From a virus (taxonomy: Duplodnaviria > Heunggongvirae > Uroviricota > Caudoviricetes): a stretch of 5,655 nucleotides of DNA. Positions 1 through 5,655 of the stretch are shown one piece after another. The stretch covers positions 1 to 5,655 of the IMG/VR virus record IMGVR_UViG_2802429221_000003; one strand, written 5' to 3'. The notes beneath the pieces were generated by a model. That model was not told the origin of the DNA. It did no database searches and worked only from the letters and a program-made list of their open reading frames with translations. The translations under genes and the position numbers were made by a program. How positions within the stretch are numbered: the first letter of the stretch is position 1; every line of letters starts with the position of its first letter.

Positions 1-117
1 ACCTATCACGTCAATAAGAATATCATCCTGCATCGACTCGTCATCATAATAGCCAATACTCTCCATAAAGGCCGAAAAGTCGGCCCTGTCGGCAAATTTG
101 AGTGTTAAATCTTTCAT
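1..117 (-). CDS. Hypothetical protein, N-terminal 39 codons only; translationally coupled to stf; not recognisable as lambda Tfa
   Basis: The ATG at 117..115 overlaps the stf stop by one base (TAATG). The frame is open to the window edge and translates as MKDLTLKFADRADFSAFMESIGYYDDESMQDDILIDVIG. It occupies the position where lambda has tfa, but the sequence does not match the Tfa N-terminus as I recall it ([20 protein letters not shown]...). Confidence 0.5.
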   Translation of the reverse strand, partial: MKDLTLKFADRADFSAFMESIGYYDDESMQDDILIDVIG

Positions 118-2330
118 TAGATTGACTCCCCCATCTGGGCATCAGTCAATGCCTTGTGCCAAATACGCAGATTTCGAACGTGTCCAAATAGGTGACGGTT
201 GCCGGATGATGATTGACCACCAATATTAATGAAACCTCCTGTATATTTGTGTTTTTTATAAGGAGAAACTGCCTTAGCACCAATATTACCGTTAACCACA
301 ACACACAACTCTCGACTTTCTGTGAATCTAAAGCCGATAATGCATTTTCTCTCTGGTCGTTCTACAACACTTTTATATTCTGTTTTAGTGCCTTTACCAT
401 TTGTAATGATTGCGCGTGCTCCCAACGATGTATATCCCAAATACATATAACTTTCATCTGCAATTTCAGTTGTATCTCCCGTAGTGGAAATATTAAGAAT
501 ACGTGCGCTACCTTCTTTGTTTGGCGATTCATCCCAATTGGTATTAACTTCTGCTAATGAACTAATAGCGGGATTGCACCAGTTTAGAGAAATGGGGACC
601 GTTACAATATCGCTGGCGCGTGTTACAGGGGATGCGCCTGTTATAATAAACGATGAAGCGCACGCCCCACCTTCAACTTGAGGGGTCGCAATATAAATAT
701 AATCATCCGCGCCAGTGCCCACTCCTTTTGCCGGGGTATACTGAACCATTCCACCTATCATATTTTCTGTATCAAGTGCCTTAATTGTCGCCTCAAAAAA
801 GATCCATTTGCTTGCTTCATCTTTAACAGCCCTAGCAGTAATGCGATTAGCGGCCACCCCCGTCTTATCAATAGATAAATCTGTCGTATTTAAGTAAGCG
901 TCACCTAAGAATGTGTAGGTAGAACCATCATAGTTTTCAAATCGTAATCGACATCTTAAATTTGGAGTGCCACTTTGCACTCTGCATGATACGGTTACAT
1001 ACTTTTCTCCGCCTGTTACGTCAAAACCTTTACTGCCAGAAACGGTTACTATGTTAATCGATGAAGTTTGCCCTACCATTTCTGGTTTTAATGTAAATTT
1101 TGCGTACTGGAATCCGAAATCATCTACACCTGATGCACTTAAGATCATATTTGACGACTTGTTCCATTTAGTCGGATTGGTTGAATTGATTAGCAGGTTA
1201 GTTCTCTGCCCTTCAATAAGCAGGCCGTTGCGTTCAAATCGTGCTTCATCGATTGCAGCCTCTGTCAGCATCCCCGCCTTATTAATATAGGTTGCTTTCG
1301 ACGCTCGTTTAAATTTAACAACCTTATCGCTAGGCATTGTTATTTCATCATCACCAATAACAATCTTTTTATATGATGGCGAAAAGCCCGCAATCATATC
1401 CAGTGAATCGTTAAACGGTATCCACACATCAGGCAGCGGCTGTAAGACATATTTATACGGCTCTGCTGCCTGGCTTGCATACTCTCTGGCTGCGTCTTCA
1501 CTTGCTTTAGCTGCCGTCTGGCTTGCTGCCGATGCTTTCGCTGAGTTCGCAGCCGCTGTTTCGCTCGCCTGTGCGTTGGTTTCACTGGTTTTTGCTGCTT
1601 TTTGGCTGTTGGCTGATGCAGTGGCAGAAGTAGCCGCCGCACTTGCAGAACCAGCTGCGGCACTCTCGCTTTCGGCTGCTGCATCCTGACTGCTTTTCGC
1701 CGCAGTTTCGCTGGCTTTGGCATTCGTTTCGCTGGTCTTCGCTGCCGTCTGGCTGGACTTTGCGTTGGTTTCGCTCGTCTTTGCTGCTGTCTCGCTGTTT
1801 TTCGCGTTGGTTTCTGATTTTTTGGCTGCTGTCGCGGAGTTTGCCGATGCAGTCTGTGAGGCCGCTGCCGCCTGGGCGCTGTTAGCTGCATTCGTTTCTG
1901 AGCTTTTCGCCGCGTTCTTCGATGATGCCGCAGCCGTTTCGGATTTCTTTGCCGCCGCTGCGCTCTGAGAGGCGGCTTCGGCGTTGCGTGCCGCTTCTTC
2001 CACCATTTCCTCAAAACGACGCAATGCCTCCGGCATGACATCATCTTCCGTCATGGCACCGAGAAAATCATTCAGCGTACCTGGTCTGGAGCCTTCATAG
2101 ACGGTAATGGTCCCGGCATGTGAAGGCGGAAAACCTTCAACCAGCAGGATGACGCTGTACTGGCCATACTCAACATCCATGCTGTAACGCCCGGCTTCAT
2201 CCGGATTTTCTGAGGCCAGCGTGTTCACCACCACCGTGGTGCTGTTACGTTTTGCTTTCAGCTGGATTGTGCAGTTCTGTACCGGTTTACCTGCACCGTC
2301 TTTCAGTACACCTGAAATCTTTACTGCCAT
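117..2330 (-). CDS. stf: Side tail fiber protein, mosaic: lambda Stf-like N-terminal domain, heptad-repeat shaft, non-lambda distal domain
   Basis: Long minus-strand ORF with TAA at 119..117. The first ~100 residues (MAVKISGVLKDGAGKPVQNCTIQLKAKRNSTTVVVNT...YSMDVEYGQYSVIL...GFPPSHAGTITVYE...) match the lambda Stf N-terminus. I place the start at the ATG 2330..2328 (MAVKIS, preceded by GGGGTG) rather than the GTG at 2336 used by the track. Residues ~120-292 are Ala/Ser/Thr-rich heptad repeats. The C-terminal ~445 residues sit in low-GC DNA and lack the His-rich GAHAH-type motifs of the lambda fiber tip. Confidence 0.85.
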   Translation of the reverse strand: MAVKISGVLKDGAGKPVQNCTIQLKAKRNSTTVVVNTLASENPDEAGRYSMDVEYGQYSVILLVEGFPPSHAGTITVYEGSRPGTLNDFLGAMTEDDVMPEALRRFEEMVEEAARNAEAASQSAAAAKKSETAAASSKNAAKSSETNAANSAQAAAASQTASANSATAAKKSETNAKNSETAAKTSETNAKSSQTAAKTSETNAKASETAAKSSQDAAAESESAAAGSASAAATSATASANSQKAAKTSETNAQASETAAANSAKASAASQTAAKASEDAAREYASQAAEPYKYVLQPLPDVWIPFNDSLDMIAGFSPSYKKIVIGDDEITMPSDKVVKFKRASKATYINKAGMLTEAAIDEARFERNGLLIEGQRTNLLINSTNPTKWNKSSNMILSASGVDDFGFQYAKFTLKPEMVGQTSSINIVTVSGSKGFDVTGGEKYVTVSCRVQSGTPNLRCRLRFENYDGSTYTFLGDAYLNTTDLSIDKTGVAANRITARAVKDEASKWIFFEATIKALDTENMIGGMVQYTPAKGVGTGADDYIYIATPQVEGGACASSFIITGASPVTRASDIVTVPISLNWCNPAISSLAEVNTNWDESPNKEGSARILNISTTGDTTEIADESYMYLGYTSLGARAIITNGKGTKTEYKSVVERPERKCIIGFRFTESRELCVVVNGNIGAKAVSPYKKHKYTGGFINIGGQSSSGNRHLFGHVRNLRIWHKALTDAQMGESI
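1461..1979 (-). repeat. In-frame tandem array of ~22 degenerate 21-bp units encoding heptad repeats (consensus roughly K-x-S-E-T-N/A-A) within stf
   Basis: Translation shows consecutive 7-residue units (KKSETAA, KSSETNA, KNSETAA, KTSETNA, KSSQTAA, KASETAA ...). The plus strand shows the corresponding periodic gct/gcc-rich 21-nt units (e.g. ...tttcgctggtcttcgctgccg...). Confidence 0.8.
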
Positions 2331-2341
2331 ATTCACCCCAC

Positions 2342-2368
2342 AAAAAAGCCCGCCTGAACCGGCGGGCT
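2342..2368 (-). terminator. Intrinsic-terminator-like hairpin plus T-run downstream of lom, immediately before the stf ribosome-binding site
   Basis: Minus strand reads AGCCCGCC-GGTTCA-GGCGGGCT followed by TTTTTTGTGGGG: an 8-bp perfect GC-rich stem, a 6-nt loop and a 6-T run. It lies 27 nt after the lom stop and ends ~11 nt before the stf ATG. Confidence 0.6.
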
Positions 2369-2394: not shown

Positions 2395-2994
2395 TCAGAA
2401 TTTATAACCGACACCCACGATGAAACCGTCAGTGCGCCAGTCACCACTGCCGGAACCTTCATAAGCAATATCAATGGCCAAGGATTCGGTCGGGTTAAAC
2501 TGCACGCCAGCCCCCCACGCCAGAGACGTGTTGCTGTGGCGACCGTCATCACTTCCGGTCAGCACATCGTGCGTTTTCTCCTTGTTGTCAGTTACGCGGA
2601 GGTAATCCCCGGAAAAAGTCGACACACGGCTGTAAGCCATACCCGCCATCGCATACGCGCTGAACCATTCATTCACGCGCACAGACGGCCCCGCCATCAC
2701 GCTGAACCAGCGGTTACGCACGGAATCTTCATGCCAGCGGGTATCGCTGTAACGGGTAAGCTGGCGATTCTTGTCTCCTGCATAGCTGAATGACGTCACC
2801 ATCCCCAGTGTGTCCGTAAACTCATAACGGTATTTCACGTTAATCCCGTTCAGATCATCGCTGCCGGGAACGTTGGTCCGGGCATGAAGATACCCCGCGC
2901 TCAGCGTGGACTGATGTTCAGACGCCCATGCAGGCACACCGGATACGGCCAGACAAATGGCTGCGGACAAAATGGCGGCATAAAGTTTACGCAT
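2395..2994 (-). CDS. lom: Lom outer membrane protein (Ail/Lom/OmpX/PagC family 8-stranded beta-barrel); lysogenic-conversion 'moron' gene
   Basis: ATG at 2994..2992 ([24 protein letters not shown], a signal peptide ending in AWA) with an SD 4 nt upstream. The ~199-aa product ends in ...GVGYKF, the terminal aromatic residue typical of OMP beta-barrels. It is near-identical to lambda Lom as I recall it. The track's ORF start at 3033 is a 13-codon upstream extension (MTPFFIAEKREVL) that runs through the terminator hairpin and is unlikely to be real. Confidence 0.9.
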
Positions 2995-3018: not shown

Positions 3019-3043
3019 AAAAAAAGGCGTCATTTCTGACGCC
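3019..3043 (-). terminator. Intrinsic-terminator-like hairpin plus T-run just downstream of J and upstream of the lom ribosome-binding site
   Basis: Minus strand reads GGCGTCA-GAAA-TGACGCC followed by TTTTTTT: a 7-bp GC-rich stem, a GNRA-type tetraloop and a 7-T run. It lies between the J stop (3062) and the lom start (2994). Confidence 0.55.
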
Positions 3044-3061
3044 CGTTCTGGGTTATAAAAT

Positions 3062-5655
3062 TCAGCTGATACTGATACCTGCTGTGGATTTCTTCATCAC
3101 CACAACCAGCAGATCACTGATACTGGTTGTTGGTGTCCAGTCATTCGCTCCTGATGAAGATACGGTGAATGTCAGTGTCAGCGTCCCCTGTCCGGCAGGC
3201 ATATCTATAACCGAGGAAAATACGCCCTGAGCATCCGTCGTGGACTGATTAAAAATCTCCTGACCATTGCGGGTCACTCTTAACCGGCAGGTTGAATACC
3301 AGTATGACTGTTGGTTATTACTGTTGAAATTCTCATGCTTACCACCACGGAACAACACTGGCGGTATCATGACCTGCCGATCAAATTTCTGATCATCACT
3401 GATTCTTACCGTGATGGTGCCGCTGGCATAAGTGCTCGTGCGGGGGAAAGACTTGCTGACCGTTTTGACAATATCGCCTTCAATCTGGTTGGCTGACAGT
3501 CTCCCCTTAATCTGACAGTTCTCATTTATCGTGACGTTGTTGAGCGTCCCGGAGTTCGCATTCACGTTACCGCTGATATCAGCATTTCTCGCCGTCAGCC
3601 GCCCGTCCGGTGTCAGGGAAAATGCCGGAGGATTACCGCCGCTGGTAATGGTGGGAGCCGTCAGATATTTCAGGAACACTTCGTTCATGAATATCTGATC
3701 GCCCTGACCAACAAACATCGGCTTTGTGTTGCCATTCGCAGGATTAATCATCGCAATCCTGTCTGCCGCCAGCAGCACCTGACTCTGCATTCCTGCTGGC
3801 GTATTCTCAATACCGGCACCGATGCCCGCGATATAAAGGCGTCCGTCCTGCACCTGCTGCATCTTCACAGCCCACATGCTGTTCAGGTTATTATTTGTAT
3901 CAACCTGAACCTTCTGTATCTGCTGGATTGCCGCACTCTGGTCTTCCAGTTTCTTATTGACAGTCTGCGTGATTTCATTGCTGACATCCGTAATGGACGT
4001 CCTGATTTCAGTCAGGTCAGGCGCAAGCTGACCGTTATCAATTTGCGTCCACAGCTCCTGAGCCAGATGGGTTTTCCCTATCTCTCCTTTGAAAAAATCC
4101 AGATAGCCGGAAGCATCATCACTCGGCTGACCAACAGCCTCCACGAATGCCGATTTGCCAACGGTGTTCACACTGCGAACGTAAAAATAATAATCATGGC
4201 CCGGCCTGATATTGATACTGGCAGCTATCCAGTACAGCGCCGTGCCAAGATAGCGGGCTGTGGTTTCAACCTGCCTGATATCCGCAATCCGTTTTTCCGA
4301 GAACCAGAACTCAAACTGTACCGTCGGGTCATAAACCGCAAGATGCGGCGTGGCGGTTATCTGAAAATAGCCCGGTGTCAGCTCAATCCGAGACGGCGCT
4401 GCCGGTGCGGCAATCCGGAACGATACCGATGCCGGATCGCCCTGCTGTCCCCACGCATTTACCGCCCGGACTGTCAGCCTGTAGTTCCCCAGCGCCAGCT
4501 GCCTGAAGCGGTATGTGGTTTCCGCCGTCCGGGCCGTGCTGACCAGCCGCTCACTGCCGTCATCCGCTGCCACGGTCAGGCGAAGCAGGAAACTCACGCC
4601 CTTCACCACCTTCGGCGTGTCCCAGCGGGCCAGTACCTGATACTCCCCGCTGTCTGCGGTGACTTCGGCAGTCAGGTGCTGCACCGCTGGCGGCGTGACA
4701 CCATTCACCGTGCCGCTCTGGTCGCCGTCAAAGTGCGCCCCGTTATCCACGATGGCTTTTTTTTCCGGTACATGCTGCACGGCAGTGATGGCATACGTGC
4801 CGTCATCGTTCTCACGGATACTCACACAGCGGAACAGGCGCTGGCGCAACGTCGGCAACTTCAGCCCCCACACGCTGTATTCTGCAACGCCGTCAGGAAC
4901 ACGGCTCACTTTTACCTTCACGCCGTCGGTGACGGACTGGACCTCCACGCTGACCGGATTGCCACTTCCGTCAACCAGGCTTATCAGCGTGGTACCGGAG
5001 GATGGCAGCGTGATTTCACGGTCGAGCGTCAGCGTCCGGGTCTGGCTGTTCACCGCCAGCACGCGCCCGCCGGTGCTGATCCCCGCATAGTCATCATCAC
5101 AGATTTCAATGACATCACCCGGTACATGGCGAAGCCCTTCTGCGCCCACGCTGAAGTCCACGGTCTGCGTTTCCAGCAGCTCCGTTTTAATCAGCCACAG
5201 CCCGGCGCGGTGTGCCTGTCCCCGGCTGGTACAGCCAAAGGCATCCATCTTCGTGACGTTACGACCGTAACGGGCAATGGCCTGCGTGTCCTCCACAAGC
5301 TCTGTTGCCGTTTCCCAGCCGTTATCCGGGTCAATCCAGTTCACCTCAACGGCATTATGGCGGTCCTTCAGGGCGCTGAAGCTGTAGCGGAACGGCGCGC
5401 CATCATCCGGCATCACCACATTACTGCGGTTATAGGTCCACACCTTATCCGACGGTCGGTCCTGCACGAACGTCAGCGTCAGCCCGTTCCATACCGGCAT
5501 ACAGCGCATCGCCGAGCAGAAATCGCTGAGCACATCCCACGCCTTACGCTGTGTGGTCAGCCAGGCATTACAGGTGATGCGCGGCTCCGTGCCACCAAAA
5601 CCGTCCGGCACCGACTGGTCGCAATTCTGGCCGATGACATACAGCGCCCATTTGT
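3062..5655 (-). CDS. J: Central tail fiber / host specificity protein J, C-terminal ~860 codons; 5' end lies beyond the window
   Basis: Open minus-strand frame from the window edge to a TGA at 3064..3062; it stays open upstream of the track's start (codon 5611..5609 is GTG, preceded in frame by ...[14 protein letters not shown]). The translation ([27 protein letters not shown]..., FN3-like segments, ...[20 protein letters not shown]...) matches lambda gpJ as I recall it. The last ~150 residues look diverged. Gene order J-lom-stf is that of lambda. Confidence 0.9.

Follow-up and report, generated by a model that had tools for sequence, protein, structure and literature searches.

Can the shaft of a phage tail fibre gain and lose whole repeats, and do the ends of such a shaft act as joints between exchangeable fibre modules? 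These questions are raised by a tandem heptad array in a side-tail-fibre gene (the query) carried by a 5,655-nt stretch of phage DNA, which was analysed at full length (the window). The sequence-only reading of this DNA had placed about 22 heptads at 1461-1979, interpreted them as the fibre shaft, and regarded the array both as a hotspot of length variation and as the crossover point between a lambda-like N-terminus and a foreign distal domain. Our analysis indicates that a shaft of heptads, with recombinational length change and module junctions at the tract ends, is very probably the best explanation of the locus.

The stf gene and its heptad tract

The window carries the genes J, lom and stf, in this order and all on the minus strand (Table 1), an arrangement identical in related phages and prophages. 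The exact 737-aa product of stf is present in two NCBI draft assemblies, GCA_013369175.2 and GCA_002965085.1, and matches PHROG tail and tail-fibre families. The top match of the window to a complete E. coli genome was 95%, and no Chi sites were found within the window. The window reaches 117 nt into a small downstream ORF, complete versions of which (92-93 aa) occupy the equivalent position in MSB1_4I, tuinn, BUCT632, L011 and L012. In relatives the small ORF is accompanied by a second fibre gene; downstream of stf, close relatives carry a 93-aa ORF and a gene for a 234-aa fibre-domain protein, not tfa.

Residues 1-131 of the protein match PF08400 (E = 5.5e-68; 227.6 bits against a Pfam cut-off of 26.6), and the first 94 are almost the same as in Ur-lambda gpStf (PDB 9e7m), where the corresponding domain forms a collar on the tail (Wang et al., Sci Adv 2025, PMC12617516). 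As in Ur-lambda, the gene follows J and lom, and an Ala/Ser-rich heptad helix comes right after the collar and a short linker. In contrast, the tract is shorter here (~190 helical residues versus ~290) and of a KTSETNAK-rich sub-type, and the distal part is a LamG-like tandem beta jelly-roll instead of a T4 gp37-like tip with a Tfa chaperone. N-terminus and shaft mark the 737-aa protein as an Stf, whereas its distal module is of another kind.

Within this distal module, segment C2 (Table 1) gave an NCBIfam GTA_spike_fiber match (residues 371-572; 61.6 bits against a cut-off of 36), and its AF2 model (pLDDT 86, pTM 0.85) matched the folds of (i) baseplate-fibre proteins of phages Pa193/E217, (ii) LamG pairs and (iii) CBM40. 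The hypervariable segment C3 is, from its sequence, a likely specificity determinant. A weak Laminin_G_3 match was detected on residues 674-732.

Table 1. Features of the window, with coordinates in the window and the evidence used
Feature	Position	Strand	Evidence or remark
Small conserved ORF (~93 aa), 5' part only; overlaps stf stop (TAATG)	1..117	-	gene calls in L014
stf (Stf-like side-tail-fibre gene), 737 aa	117..2330	-	ORF list; start MAVKISG; downstream of J and lom
C4, conserved C-terminal end (residues 701-737), part of LamG / concanavalin-like domain	120..230	-	~80% identity across homologues
C3, hypervariable segment (residues 578-700)	231..599	-	24-31% identity in most of 120 homologues; flanks 80-97%
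C2, first beta jelly-roll region (residues 379-577)	600..1196	-	~84.5% DNA identity with T1-like and T5-like phages (blastn)
C1, first 90 residues of C-terminal module (289-378)	1197..1466	-	91-93% identical in closest lambdoid homologues
Distal junction: last heptad plus AREYASQAAEPYKYVLQPLPDVW	1416..1490	-	homology with T1-like/T5-like phage fibres begins
Heptad tract, 25 in-register repeats (residues 113-288)	1467..1994	-	consensus A-[A/K]-x-S-[E/A/Q]-T-[A/N]; register and statistics
Interval holding the 189-bp unit junction relative to the common two-unit allele (residues 191-210)	1701..1760	-	two-register comparison with phage 2G7b
N-terminal collar / attachment domain (residues 1-94)	2049..2330	-	lambda Stf residues 1-94 in PDB 9e7m/9mgh, E = 3.4e-50
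Terminator-like hairpin between lom and stf start	2347..2368	-	pattern scan: 8-bp stem, 7 GC pairs, then TTTTTG
lom (Ail/Lom outer-membrane protein)	2395..2994	-	PF06316, E = 1.6e-119
Tail tip protein J, 5' end truncated at contig end	3062..5655	-	Pfam Phage-tail_3, Ig_J, Phage_Tail_Tip, Ig_GpJ_C

The tract keeps a single register, with zero indels, from AARNAEA (residue 113, window 1994) through AREYASQ (residue 287, window 1470). Ala occupies heptad position 1 in 23 of 26 rows, Ser position 4 in 23 of 25, and Ala or Asn position 7 in 24 of 25, and the core positions are without Leu, Ile or Val. For detection of the array, autocorrelation with codon-shuffle controls replaced Tandem Repeats Finder, which recovered fragments only (periods 21 and 42, 67-80% matches, window 1624-1814) as adjacent DNA units share just ~50% identity. 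The DNA self-match at lag 21 was 0.497, against 0.359 +/- 0.022 in 1000 codon-preserving shuffles (any-lag shuffle maximum 0.444), and the protein self-match reached 0.49 at lag 7 and 0.525 at lag 14 (shuffle maximum 0.33). These statistics and the single register confirmed the 21-bp DNA and 7-residue protein periodicity on the minus strand, whereas the earlier extent of the array had to be revised to 25 heptads at 1467-1994.

An AF2 monomer model predicted one continuous helix spanning residues 98-288 (mostly pLDDT > 90), which starts at window 2039; no experimental structure of either the tract or the C-module turned up when the PDB was searched by sequence. The equivalent regions of three related fibres are published trimeric coiled coils: (i) residues 102-393 of lambda Stf form the proximal coiled coil of a trimeric fibre (PMC12617516), (ii) the EPclA (EHEC) region homologous to the tract is a trimeric coiled coil (PMC3368898), and (iii) in DT57C LtfA a coiled coil of three helices starts at residue T40 (PMC10713586). 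The tract is therefore best read as the proximal fibre shaft, as had been proposed from the letters, and by analogy with PMC12617516 and PMC3368898 it presumably trimerises as a coiled coil.

The periodic DNA might instead encode something else, in another plus or minus frame or as RNA, and ORFs of 80-216 aa do span the tract (1394-2044 on the minus strand, 1643-1885 and 1717-1968 on the plus strand). However, homologues, domains and a conserved register were found in the Stf frame only, the other frames yield low-complexity Arg/Gln-rich or Phe/Ala-rich strings, as the repeat predicts, and the window matches zero Rfam families. Moreover, the wrong-frame database proteins P0137 and P0161 cross into the Stf frame where the tract ends, a pattern suggestive of frameshift or annotation artefacts. 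The probability of such alternative coding is negligible.

Length alleles and the 189-bp unit

Shaft length was measured as the spacing from RRFEEM to PLPDVW, which is 194 aa in the query. The 120 closest homologues displayed nine spacings (194, 208, 229, 250, 251, 253, 256, 257 and 320, with n = 105 for 257 and n = 5 for 320), some of them derived from short-read or metagenome assemblies prone to repeat mis-assembly. As many as 116 of the 120 differ from the query by 0, 14, 35, 56, 63 or 126 residues (0, 2, 5, 8, 9 or 18 heptads), the dominant differences being 9 and 18 heptads, and four are out of register by 1-4 residues. Between the genes of MSB1_4I, P0008 and P0001 the DNA is 99.9-100% identical over the C-domain and 98.7-100% over the N-domain, yet their tracts measure 567, 609 and 945 nt (25, 27 and 43 heptads). 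In finished or phage genomes we counted 25 heptads in MSB1_4I, 25-26 in IdasGreatGrand, 33 in PhiR55_1, 35 in 2G7b and 19 in ev243, while Stf-type fibres overall range from 13 to about 48. That shaft length differs by whole repeats between near-identical prophages is strongly supported. The tract shares with the PCoil of Ghosh et al. (2012) an Ala-x-x-Ala/Ser-x-x-Ser heptad periodicity with few large hydrophobic residues and length steps of seven residues; that paper independently reports coiled-coil length differences in multiples of seven (PMC3368898). Literature searches by SETNAK-type peptide motif, or by length variation and repeat number, returned irrelevant papers only.

Comparison of the alleles revealed a higher-order unit of nine heptads (189 bp), present in one, two or three copies per allele and in one copy in the query. 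The query differs from 2G7b by exactly 189 nt, and the junction lies within nt 571-630 of the query gene. Homology also breaks repeatedly in the corresponding interval, 1701-1760, and the best GC3 change-point is close by. Unit-to-unit identity is 87% in 2G7b and 94.6% in P0001. Exact direct repeats reach 26, 47 and 251 bp, the 251-bp repeat of P0001 being suspicious, and their lags are always multiples of 21. In the query the longest exact direct repeat is 14 bp (lag 231), and repeats of 12-14 bp occur at lags of 189-231; with only such short repeats, the instability of this allele is probably low.

A slipped-strand contingency repeat was considered as a candidate and rejected (lag-21 identity 0.50; Tandem Repeats Finder matches of 67-80% over fragments; longest repeat 14 bp). 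According to this model, single heptads would come and go by slipped-strand mispairing of 21-bp units, as at a classical contingency locus, and it draws on the 21-bp periodicity itself and on two alleles that depart from the one-unit form by a few heptads (+2 and +5). The latter, however, are explained by the joining of distant KAAKTSETNAK motifs. Adjacent 21-bp units are only about 50% identical and score low in Tandem Repeats Finder, the longest exact repeats (12-14 bp) lie at lags of 189-231 bp rather than 21 bp, differences of 9 and 18 heptads dominate, and among the 120 homologues no alleles one heptad apart at adjacent near-identical units were seen. Slippage of this kind is thus very improbable, and it is strongly supported that the main substrate of length change is the 189-bp unit, together with scattered in-register motifs. 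The earlier suggestion that fibre length may vary is borne out by the nine spacings and the 116 in-register homologues, but its slipped-strand route through 21-bp units is not.

It could also be argued that the tract is a purely structural coiled coil without any hotspot, and that the copy differences reflect assembly artefacts or rare, old and neutral events. Thousands of database Stf fragments end at the tract start, so assemblies do break there; a search with the N-domain alone yielded for the most part incomplete proteins of 100-196 aa (certain clusters exceeding 1000 members) and, consisting almost entirely of contig-end fragments, was unusable for a survey of tract length across Stf types. 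The window is itself an entire 5655-bp draft contig, the 43-heptad P0001 resides on a 4.5-kb metagenome contig with its 251-bp exact internal repeat, and the query carries just 12-14-bp exact repeats. Against this stand the various lengths in finished or phage genomes (19 to 35 heptads), the 27-heptad allele repeated on 12 contigs, the 320-spacing allele found in 5 clusters that include isolates with contigs of 300-580 kb, the genes with near-identical flanks and different tract lengths, and the published differences in multiples of seven (PMC3368898). We consider the artefactual or neutral origin of these differences improbable.

Module junctions and base composition

The comparison of homologues, proposed in the sequence-only reading as a check, revealed that copy number clearly varies and that homology breakpoints lie at the tract. 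Among lambdoid relatives the commonest break is the proximal end of the tract (about 1981): in an even sample of 40 E. coli records, the match ends at 1978-1996 in 20 and within the tract in 6 more. Homology with ev243 and DS566 stops at residue 208, that with PRO_A at residue 204, and for 2G7b, ev243 and DS566 homology ends at window 1197. At the distal end, blastn homology begins in or just past the last heptad, at window 1484 for tuinn and 1442 for BUCT632, phages which carry their own heptad tracts on unrelated N-termini. Identity to tuinn, calculated per 15 nt, steps up at about 1478, and across diverse representatives the C-module opens with a conserved PLPDVW. These sequence comparisons support the tract end as a putative crossover point for exchange between phage families. 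Since strong breakpoints also occur outside the tract (about 1197 and about 600, plus the hypervariable 231-599), the tract is one junction among several. The proposed lambda-like/foreign crossover thus agrees with the start of T1-like and T5-like homology, but the junctions at 1981, 1197 and 600 deprive it of an exclusive role.

The earlier argument for this crossover had relied on a drop in GC content at the end of the repeats. Total GC indeed drops around window 1400-1470, from about 0.57 to about 0.42, but most of the step at the tract end comes from amino-acid composition: GC2 of the tract is 0.69, due to Ala, Ser and Thr codons. Total GC was rejected as a marker of foreign origin, the step being driven by codon position 2. 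The change-point in GC3 is real and can be located only to window 1139-1736, so the crossover argument is confounded by GC2 and loosely placed by GC3.

Alternatively, the lambda-like/foreign join might fall within the tract or past it, in which case the tract's distal third would have entered together with the 90 residues that open the C-module. GC3 is already low (0.37-0.47) across the last 75 tract residues, its best change-point falls at 1655-1697 (with a near-equal alternative at 1379), a recurrent breakpoint is present at residues 204-208, and the last heptads and EPYK accompany the C-module in T1-like phages. The support interval of GC3 is nevertheless wide (window 1139-1736), nucleotide identity to tuinn climbs only at about 1478, and many representatives fuse PLPDVW straight to non-repeat domains. 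We regard this placement of the join as possible but doubtful, and retain the tract ends as the preferred junctions.

Relation to known fibres and possible meaning

Several known systems resemble the query in part. In EPclA/EPclB the PCoil likewise follows a PF08400 domain, and modular recombination among prophages has been proposed for these proteins (Ghosh et al., PLoS One 2012, PMC3368898). The present protein differs in having neither the collagen (G-X-Y) domain nor the PfC domain; a collagen Pfam match and a G-X-Y run were both absent from the 737-aa translation. In the accessible part of the same paper we found no description of a nine-heptad higher-order unit whose copy number differs, from one to three, between alleles with identical flanks. 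Relative to the E. coli K-12 StfR-type, DNA homology of the tract is lost at the tract start.

DT57C LtfA and the L-shaped, branched lateral fibres (PMC10713586, PMC4728585) share a long helix of AAKTSETNAK-type heptads, presumably trimerising in the query as well. The LtfA-position protein of T5-like BUCT632 shares C-module residues 297-577 (84.7% DNA identity), and there too a small ORF and then a second fibre gene follow. The anchors, however, are unrelated (an LtfA lasso in the LtfC collar versus the Stf collar domain): the N-terminus of the query is PF08400, DNA homology to BUCT632 is limited to residues 297-577, and the T5-like tract is longer and interrupted. T1-like (Drexlerviridae) phages such as tuinn and swan01 have the C-module and the last heptad (EEYAKQAAEPYK) in common with the query (84.5% DNA identity), and a heptad tract also joins the C-module to the N-terminal part, but this tract has just 13 heptads of another sequence type (AESARDAANTAK) and follows an unrelated N-terminal domain.

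Temperate and virulent phages that are not related to one another are on record as swapping fibre segments horizontally (Haggard-Ljungquist 1992; Sandmeier 1992, 1994; in PMC3945230), and lambda stf has been reported to recombine with defective prophages (De Paepe 2014). Those mosaic genes centre on distal gp37/H-type tips and invertase-associated segments, whereas the junctions found here flank the coiled-coil tract and a LamG-type module. The coiled-coil shaft and modular exchange are ordinary and largely published (Ghosh 2012; Ur-lambda 2025).

In the explanation that we favour, each chain would fold its Ala/Ser-rich heptads into a single long alpha-helix, and three such helices, judging from homologues, would run parallel in a coiled coil of about 28 nm, which would link the tail-docked N-terminal collar domain with a C-terminal module of two lectin-like beta jelly-rolls. 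Interchangeable heptads recur at the DNA level, most alleles holding two or three 189-bp blocks, so that homologous unequal recombination, or replication slippage between in-register repeats, could add or remove whole heptads and leave the coiled-coil register intact; this mechanism is one that we infer. The outcome would be fibres of differing reach on otherwise identical genes, the window allele representing the short one-unit form. Heptads of the AAKTSETNAK kind occur also in fibres of unrelated phages (lambdoid, T1-like, T5-like), with close resemblance in the T5-like tract only, and the two tract ends may be junctions that re-assort anchoring domains and receptor-binding modules.

Any functional effect of shaft length is likewise something that we infer. 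It is conceivable, although rather unlikely, that the shaft is a fast-switching "ruler", in which jumps of the 189-bp unit (~26/35/45 nm) would outpace point mutation, with selection fitting the reach of the fibre to how thick the O-antigen or capsule layer of the host is. If true, a contingency-like mechanism would act on fibre length instead of expression. A side implication of the ruler would be recent traffic of LamG-type modules between temperate lambdoid and virulent T1-like/T5-like phages, the end of the coiled coil acting as a universal splice site.

For a region that automatic annotation leaves nameless, the analysis provides a function, that of a coiled-coil shaft, and a map of boundaries. 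Because stf genes from short reads are often broken or possibly collapsed at the tract, copy numbers should be determined from long reads. In the engineering of chimeric fibres, the safe splice points would be (i) the proximal tract edge (~residue 117), (ii) in-register positions within the tract and (iii) the EPYK/PLPDVW junction. The occurrence of 25, 27 or 43 heptads on near-identical genes offers a modest, testable lead as to whether selection acts on fibre reach.

Gene context and extent of the heptad tract

All genes of the window lie on the minus strand (see table). The Stf-like ORF starts with the domain that Pfam names 'prophage tail fibre N-terminal', and its residues 1-94 are near-identical to the lambda Stf segment seen in PDB 9e7m/9mgh. 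The window sequence constitutes one complete 5655-bp contig that two NCBI draft assemblies contain; among complete E. coli genomes, MSB1_4I comes closest, with 95% identity over the stf region.

Features of the window and their coordinates
Feature	Position	Strand	Evidence
J, tail-tip gene, 5'-truncated	3062-5655	minus	Pfam Phage-tail_3, Ig_J, Phage_Tail_Tip, Ig_GpJ_C
GC-rich hairpin and T-run, downstream of J, before lom	3025-3044	minus	
lom	2395-2994	minus	PF06316, E = 1.6e-119
GC-rich hairpin and T-run, directly downstream of lom, just before stf start	2347-2368	minus	
Stf-like ORF, 737 aa, start MAVKISG	117-2330	minus	PF08400 on residues 1-131, E = 5.5e-68
Hypervariable segment, residues 578-700	231-599	minus	24-31% identity in most close homologues, flanks 80-97%
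Small conserved ORF, ~93 aa, overlapping the stf stop codon (TAATG)	1-117; relatives' loci L001 3336-3617, L002 3263-3541, L003 3260-3538	minus in window	

The number of terminator-like sites in the window, the two tabulated hairpins (putative terminators) among them, was not above shuffle expectation. The small ORF gave no Pfam match. Downstream of it, lambdoid, T1-like and T5-like relatives carry a second fibre gene (234-579 aa), in one case with a weak Peptidase_S74 match; this gene order suggests a branched fibre resembling DT57C LtfA/LtfB. Within J, GC content around the Ig-like domains (window 4300-4700) reaches 0.60-0.67, clearly higher than elsewhere in the window and in contrast to 0.37-0.46 in the part of stf distal to the heptads (the C-module, beginning PLPDVW).

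Written in sevens, the protein keeps a single, gap-free register from residue 113 (AARNAEA, window 1994) to residue 287 (AREYASQ, window 1470). The tract therefore comprises 25 heptads with the consensus A-[A/K]-x-S-[E/A/Q]-T-[A/N] (window 1467-1994). Lag-21 DNA self-identity was 0.497, versus 0.359 +/- 0.022 in 1000 codon-preserving shuffles, none of which exceeded 0.444 at any lag; protein self-identity was 0.49 at lag 7 and 0.525 at lag 14 (shuffle maximum, 0.33). The array recognized in the sequence-only reading is thus confirmed, but its size (about 22 heptads) and borders (1461-1979) required small corrections. Tandem Repeats Finder recovered only fragments of it, because neighbouring units are just about half identical as DNA. 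The Rfam search yielded no family match, and the other open frames over the tract (1394-2044, minus; 1643-1885 and 1717-1968, plus) were dismissed as by-products of the repeat. Two database proteins (P0137, P0161) begin in the wrong tract frame, as Arg/Gln-rich strings, and shift into the Stf frame near EPYK; the annotation of the DS566 gene (locus L010, 1947-4008) records a frameshift. Frameshifts or errors of sequencing seem to arise easily in this tract.

Given residues 92-310 as a single sequence, AlphaFold2 predicted one unbroken helix (residues 98-288, pLDDT mostly above 90) that ends exactly with the heptads. About 191 helical residues at ~0.148 nm give a predicted shaft length of ~28 nm. 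A homologous element is carried by three published systems, including Ur-lambda gpStf, which consists of a collar (1-91), linker, proximal coiled coil (102-393), hinge and distal domain, each side fibre being a trimer (PMC12617516), and LtfA of the T5-like phage DT57C, with a three-helix coiled coil starting at residue 40 (PMC10713586). By this homology the tract is read as the proximal fibre shaft, and it would be trimeric as in its published counterparts.

Length variation of the tract

Tract length was taken as the spacing between the motifs RRFEEM (N-domain) and PLPDVW (C-module), which is 194 residues in this allele. The best 120 homologues showed distances of 194 (2), 208 (1), 229 (1), 250 (2), 251 (1), 253 (1), 256 (2), 257 (105) and 320 (5), and 116 of them lie 0, 2, 5, 8, 9 or 18 whole heptads from this allele. 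The remainder (P0003, P0004, P0006, P0112) are off register by 1-4 residues, e.g. through one Ala missing in SAAAASA, which could reflect tolerated coiled-coil stutters or sequencing errors. The distances 194, 257 and 320 correspond to one, two and three copies of a nine-heptad unit (63 aa, 189 bp; TAAKTSE TNAKSSQ TAAKTSE TNAKASE TAAKNSQ VAAAQSE SAAAGSA TSAAGSA TAAANSQ). Phage 2G7b carries the two-unit form: its left register matches this gene at 97-100% up to gene nt 630, and the register shifted by exactly 189 nt at 93-100% from nt 571 onward. Since both fit over nt 571-630, the junction lies in residues 191-210 (window 1701-1760). The units are 87% identical to each other in 2G7b and 94.6% in a three-unit allele.

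MSB1_4I and the homologues P0008 (found on 12 contigs) and P0001 carry 25, 27 and 43 heptads, respectively, on flanks 99.9-100% (C-domain, 1347 nt) and 98.7-100% (N-domain) identical as DNA; changes in length have thus outpaced point substitution. The expectation that fibre length varies between related phages is borne out by these alleles. In the examined tracts, every exact direct repeat of at least 12 bp has a lag equal to some multiple of 21 bp. The longest such repeat has 14 bp in the present gene, 26 bp in 2G7b, 47 bp in P0008 and 251 bp in P0001. Whole heptads would be gained or lost by unequal homologous recombination, or by slippage, between distant in-register repeats, the 189-bp unit being dominant. 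Slipped-strand mispairing, which the sequence-only reading had offered alongside unequal recombination, does not fit this pattern if it acts heptad by heptad. Having lost the long repeats, the one-unit allele should be comparatively stable.

Part of the length alleles derive from short-read assemblies, and the 251-bp repeat of P0001 could be an assembly artefact. A search with the N-domain returned mostly 100-196-aa fragments whose ends lie at the tract start or slightly within the tract (P0271-P0390), some clusters exceeding 1000 members. With thousands of Stf fragments ending there, short-read assemblies evidently often break at this site, and repeat counts from draft genomes are therefore unreliable; finished phage and bacterial genomes carry 19, 25, 33 and 35 heptads.

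Homology breakpoints, base composition and the distal module

Forty E. coli records were sampled in even steps through 4999 hits. Half of the matches (20/40) end at query 1978-1996, the proximal tract edge, 6 inside the tract (1563-1758) and 5 in the first 90 residues past it (1197-1346), while 8 reach the window start with gaps. Pairwise blastn agrees with this pattern: homology to K-12 StfR (90%) ends at residue 117; that to PRO_A ends at 130 and restarts for 138-204 at a 19-heptad offset; that to ev243 and DS566 ends at 208 and restarts at 246. At the distal edge, tuinn (T1-like) and BUCT632 (T5-like) share ~84.5% DNA identity with this gene over residues 283-577 and 297-577, so homology sets in within the final heptad or right behind it; in tuinn, identity per 15 nt steps up at ~window 1478. 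Both carry the same C-module on unrelated N-terminal anchors, joined via their own heptad tracts. Among 1.8 billion representatives searched, the C-module always starts PLPDVWIP, preceded often directly by Ala/Glu/Lys/Asp-rich heptads and sometimes by non-repeat domains. Across the 120 closest homologues, identity is 91-97% in the N-domain, in the tract and in residues 289-378; from ~residue 378 the sequences diverge, extremely so in 578-700 (24-31%), before ~80% identity returns over the final 37 residues. The proposal that the tract served as the crossover point thus holds in part: breaks at both ends and within argue for it, but junctions such as that near residue 378 lie outside, and the tract is one junction among several.

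The same proposal had invoked the fall in GC content. Total GC does drop at the tract end, but largely for compositional reasons, since codons for Ala, Ser and Thr bring GC at codon position 2 to 0.69 in the tract. The N-domain has a GC3 of 0.53, the tract 0.52 (~0.6 over its first 100 residues, 0.37-0.47 over its last 75) and the C-module 0.34. A two-segment likelihood scan placed the best GC3 change-point only loosely, at codons 211-225 (window 1655-1697; 2-log-likelihood support interval, window 1139-1736). C-module GC3 is likewise low in the T1-like (0.32) and T5-like (0.29) genes, in line with a possible source among virulent phages of low GC.

Over window 600-1484 (minus strand), the C-module shows ~84.5% nucleotide identity with virulent T1-like Drexlerviridae (e.g. 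tuinn, swan01) and T5-like Demerecviridae (e.g. BUCT632, VSe12). Sequence comparison suggests that temperate and virulent phages exchanged it fairly recently; exchange of this kind is described as rare outside stf (De Paepe et al. 2014). NCBIfam places a GTA_spike_fiber domain on residues 371-572, and Pfam a weak Laminin_G_3 match at the C-terminal end. An AF2 model from a 47-sequence alignment is all-beta (pLDDT 86, pTM 0.85), and its Foldseek matches (baseplate-fibre proteins of Pseudomonas phages Pa193/E217, laminin LG pairs, sialic-acid-binding CBM40 modules) point to tandem lectin-type jelly-rolls, which may bind carbohydrate. The hypervariable segment is probably the receptor-specificity determinant of this LamG-like distal domain.

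Relation to known fibre genes

PMC3368898 reports the heptad periodicity, a trimeric coiled coil that follows PF08400, lengths that differ by multiples of seven, and modular recombination among prophages; PMC12617516 describes the proximal coiled coil in lambda Stf. Mosaic fibre-gene exchange across phage families, and lambda stf recombining with defective prophages, are dealt with in PMC3945230 and in the Haggard-Ljungquist and Sandmeier papers cited there. The heptad element and its behaviour are therefore already in the literature; the finding is real, correctly interpreted in outline, and ordinary. The present analysis adds a higher-order unit of nine heptads whose one-, two- and three-copy alleles share near-identical flanks, maps the deletion junction of this allele and corrects the GC argument.
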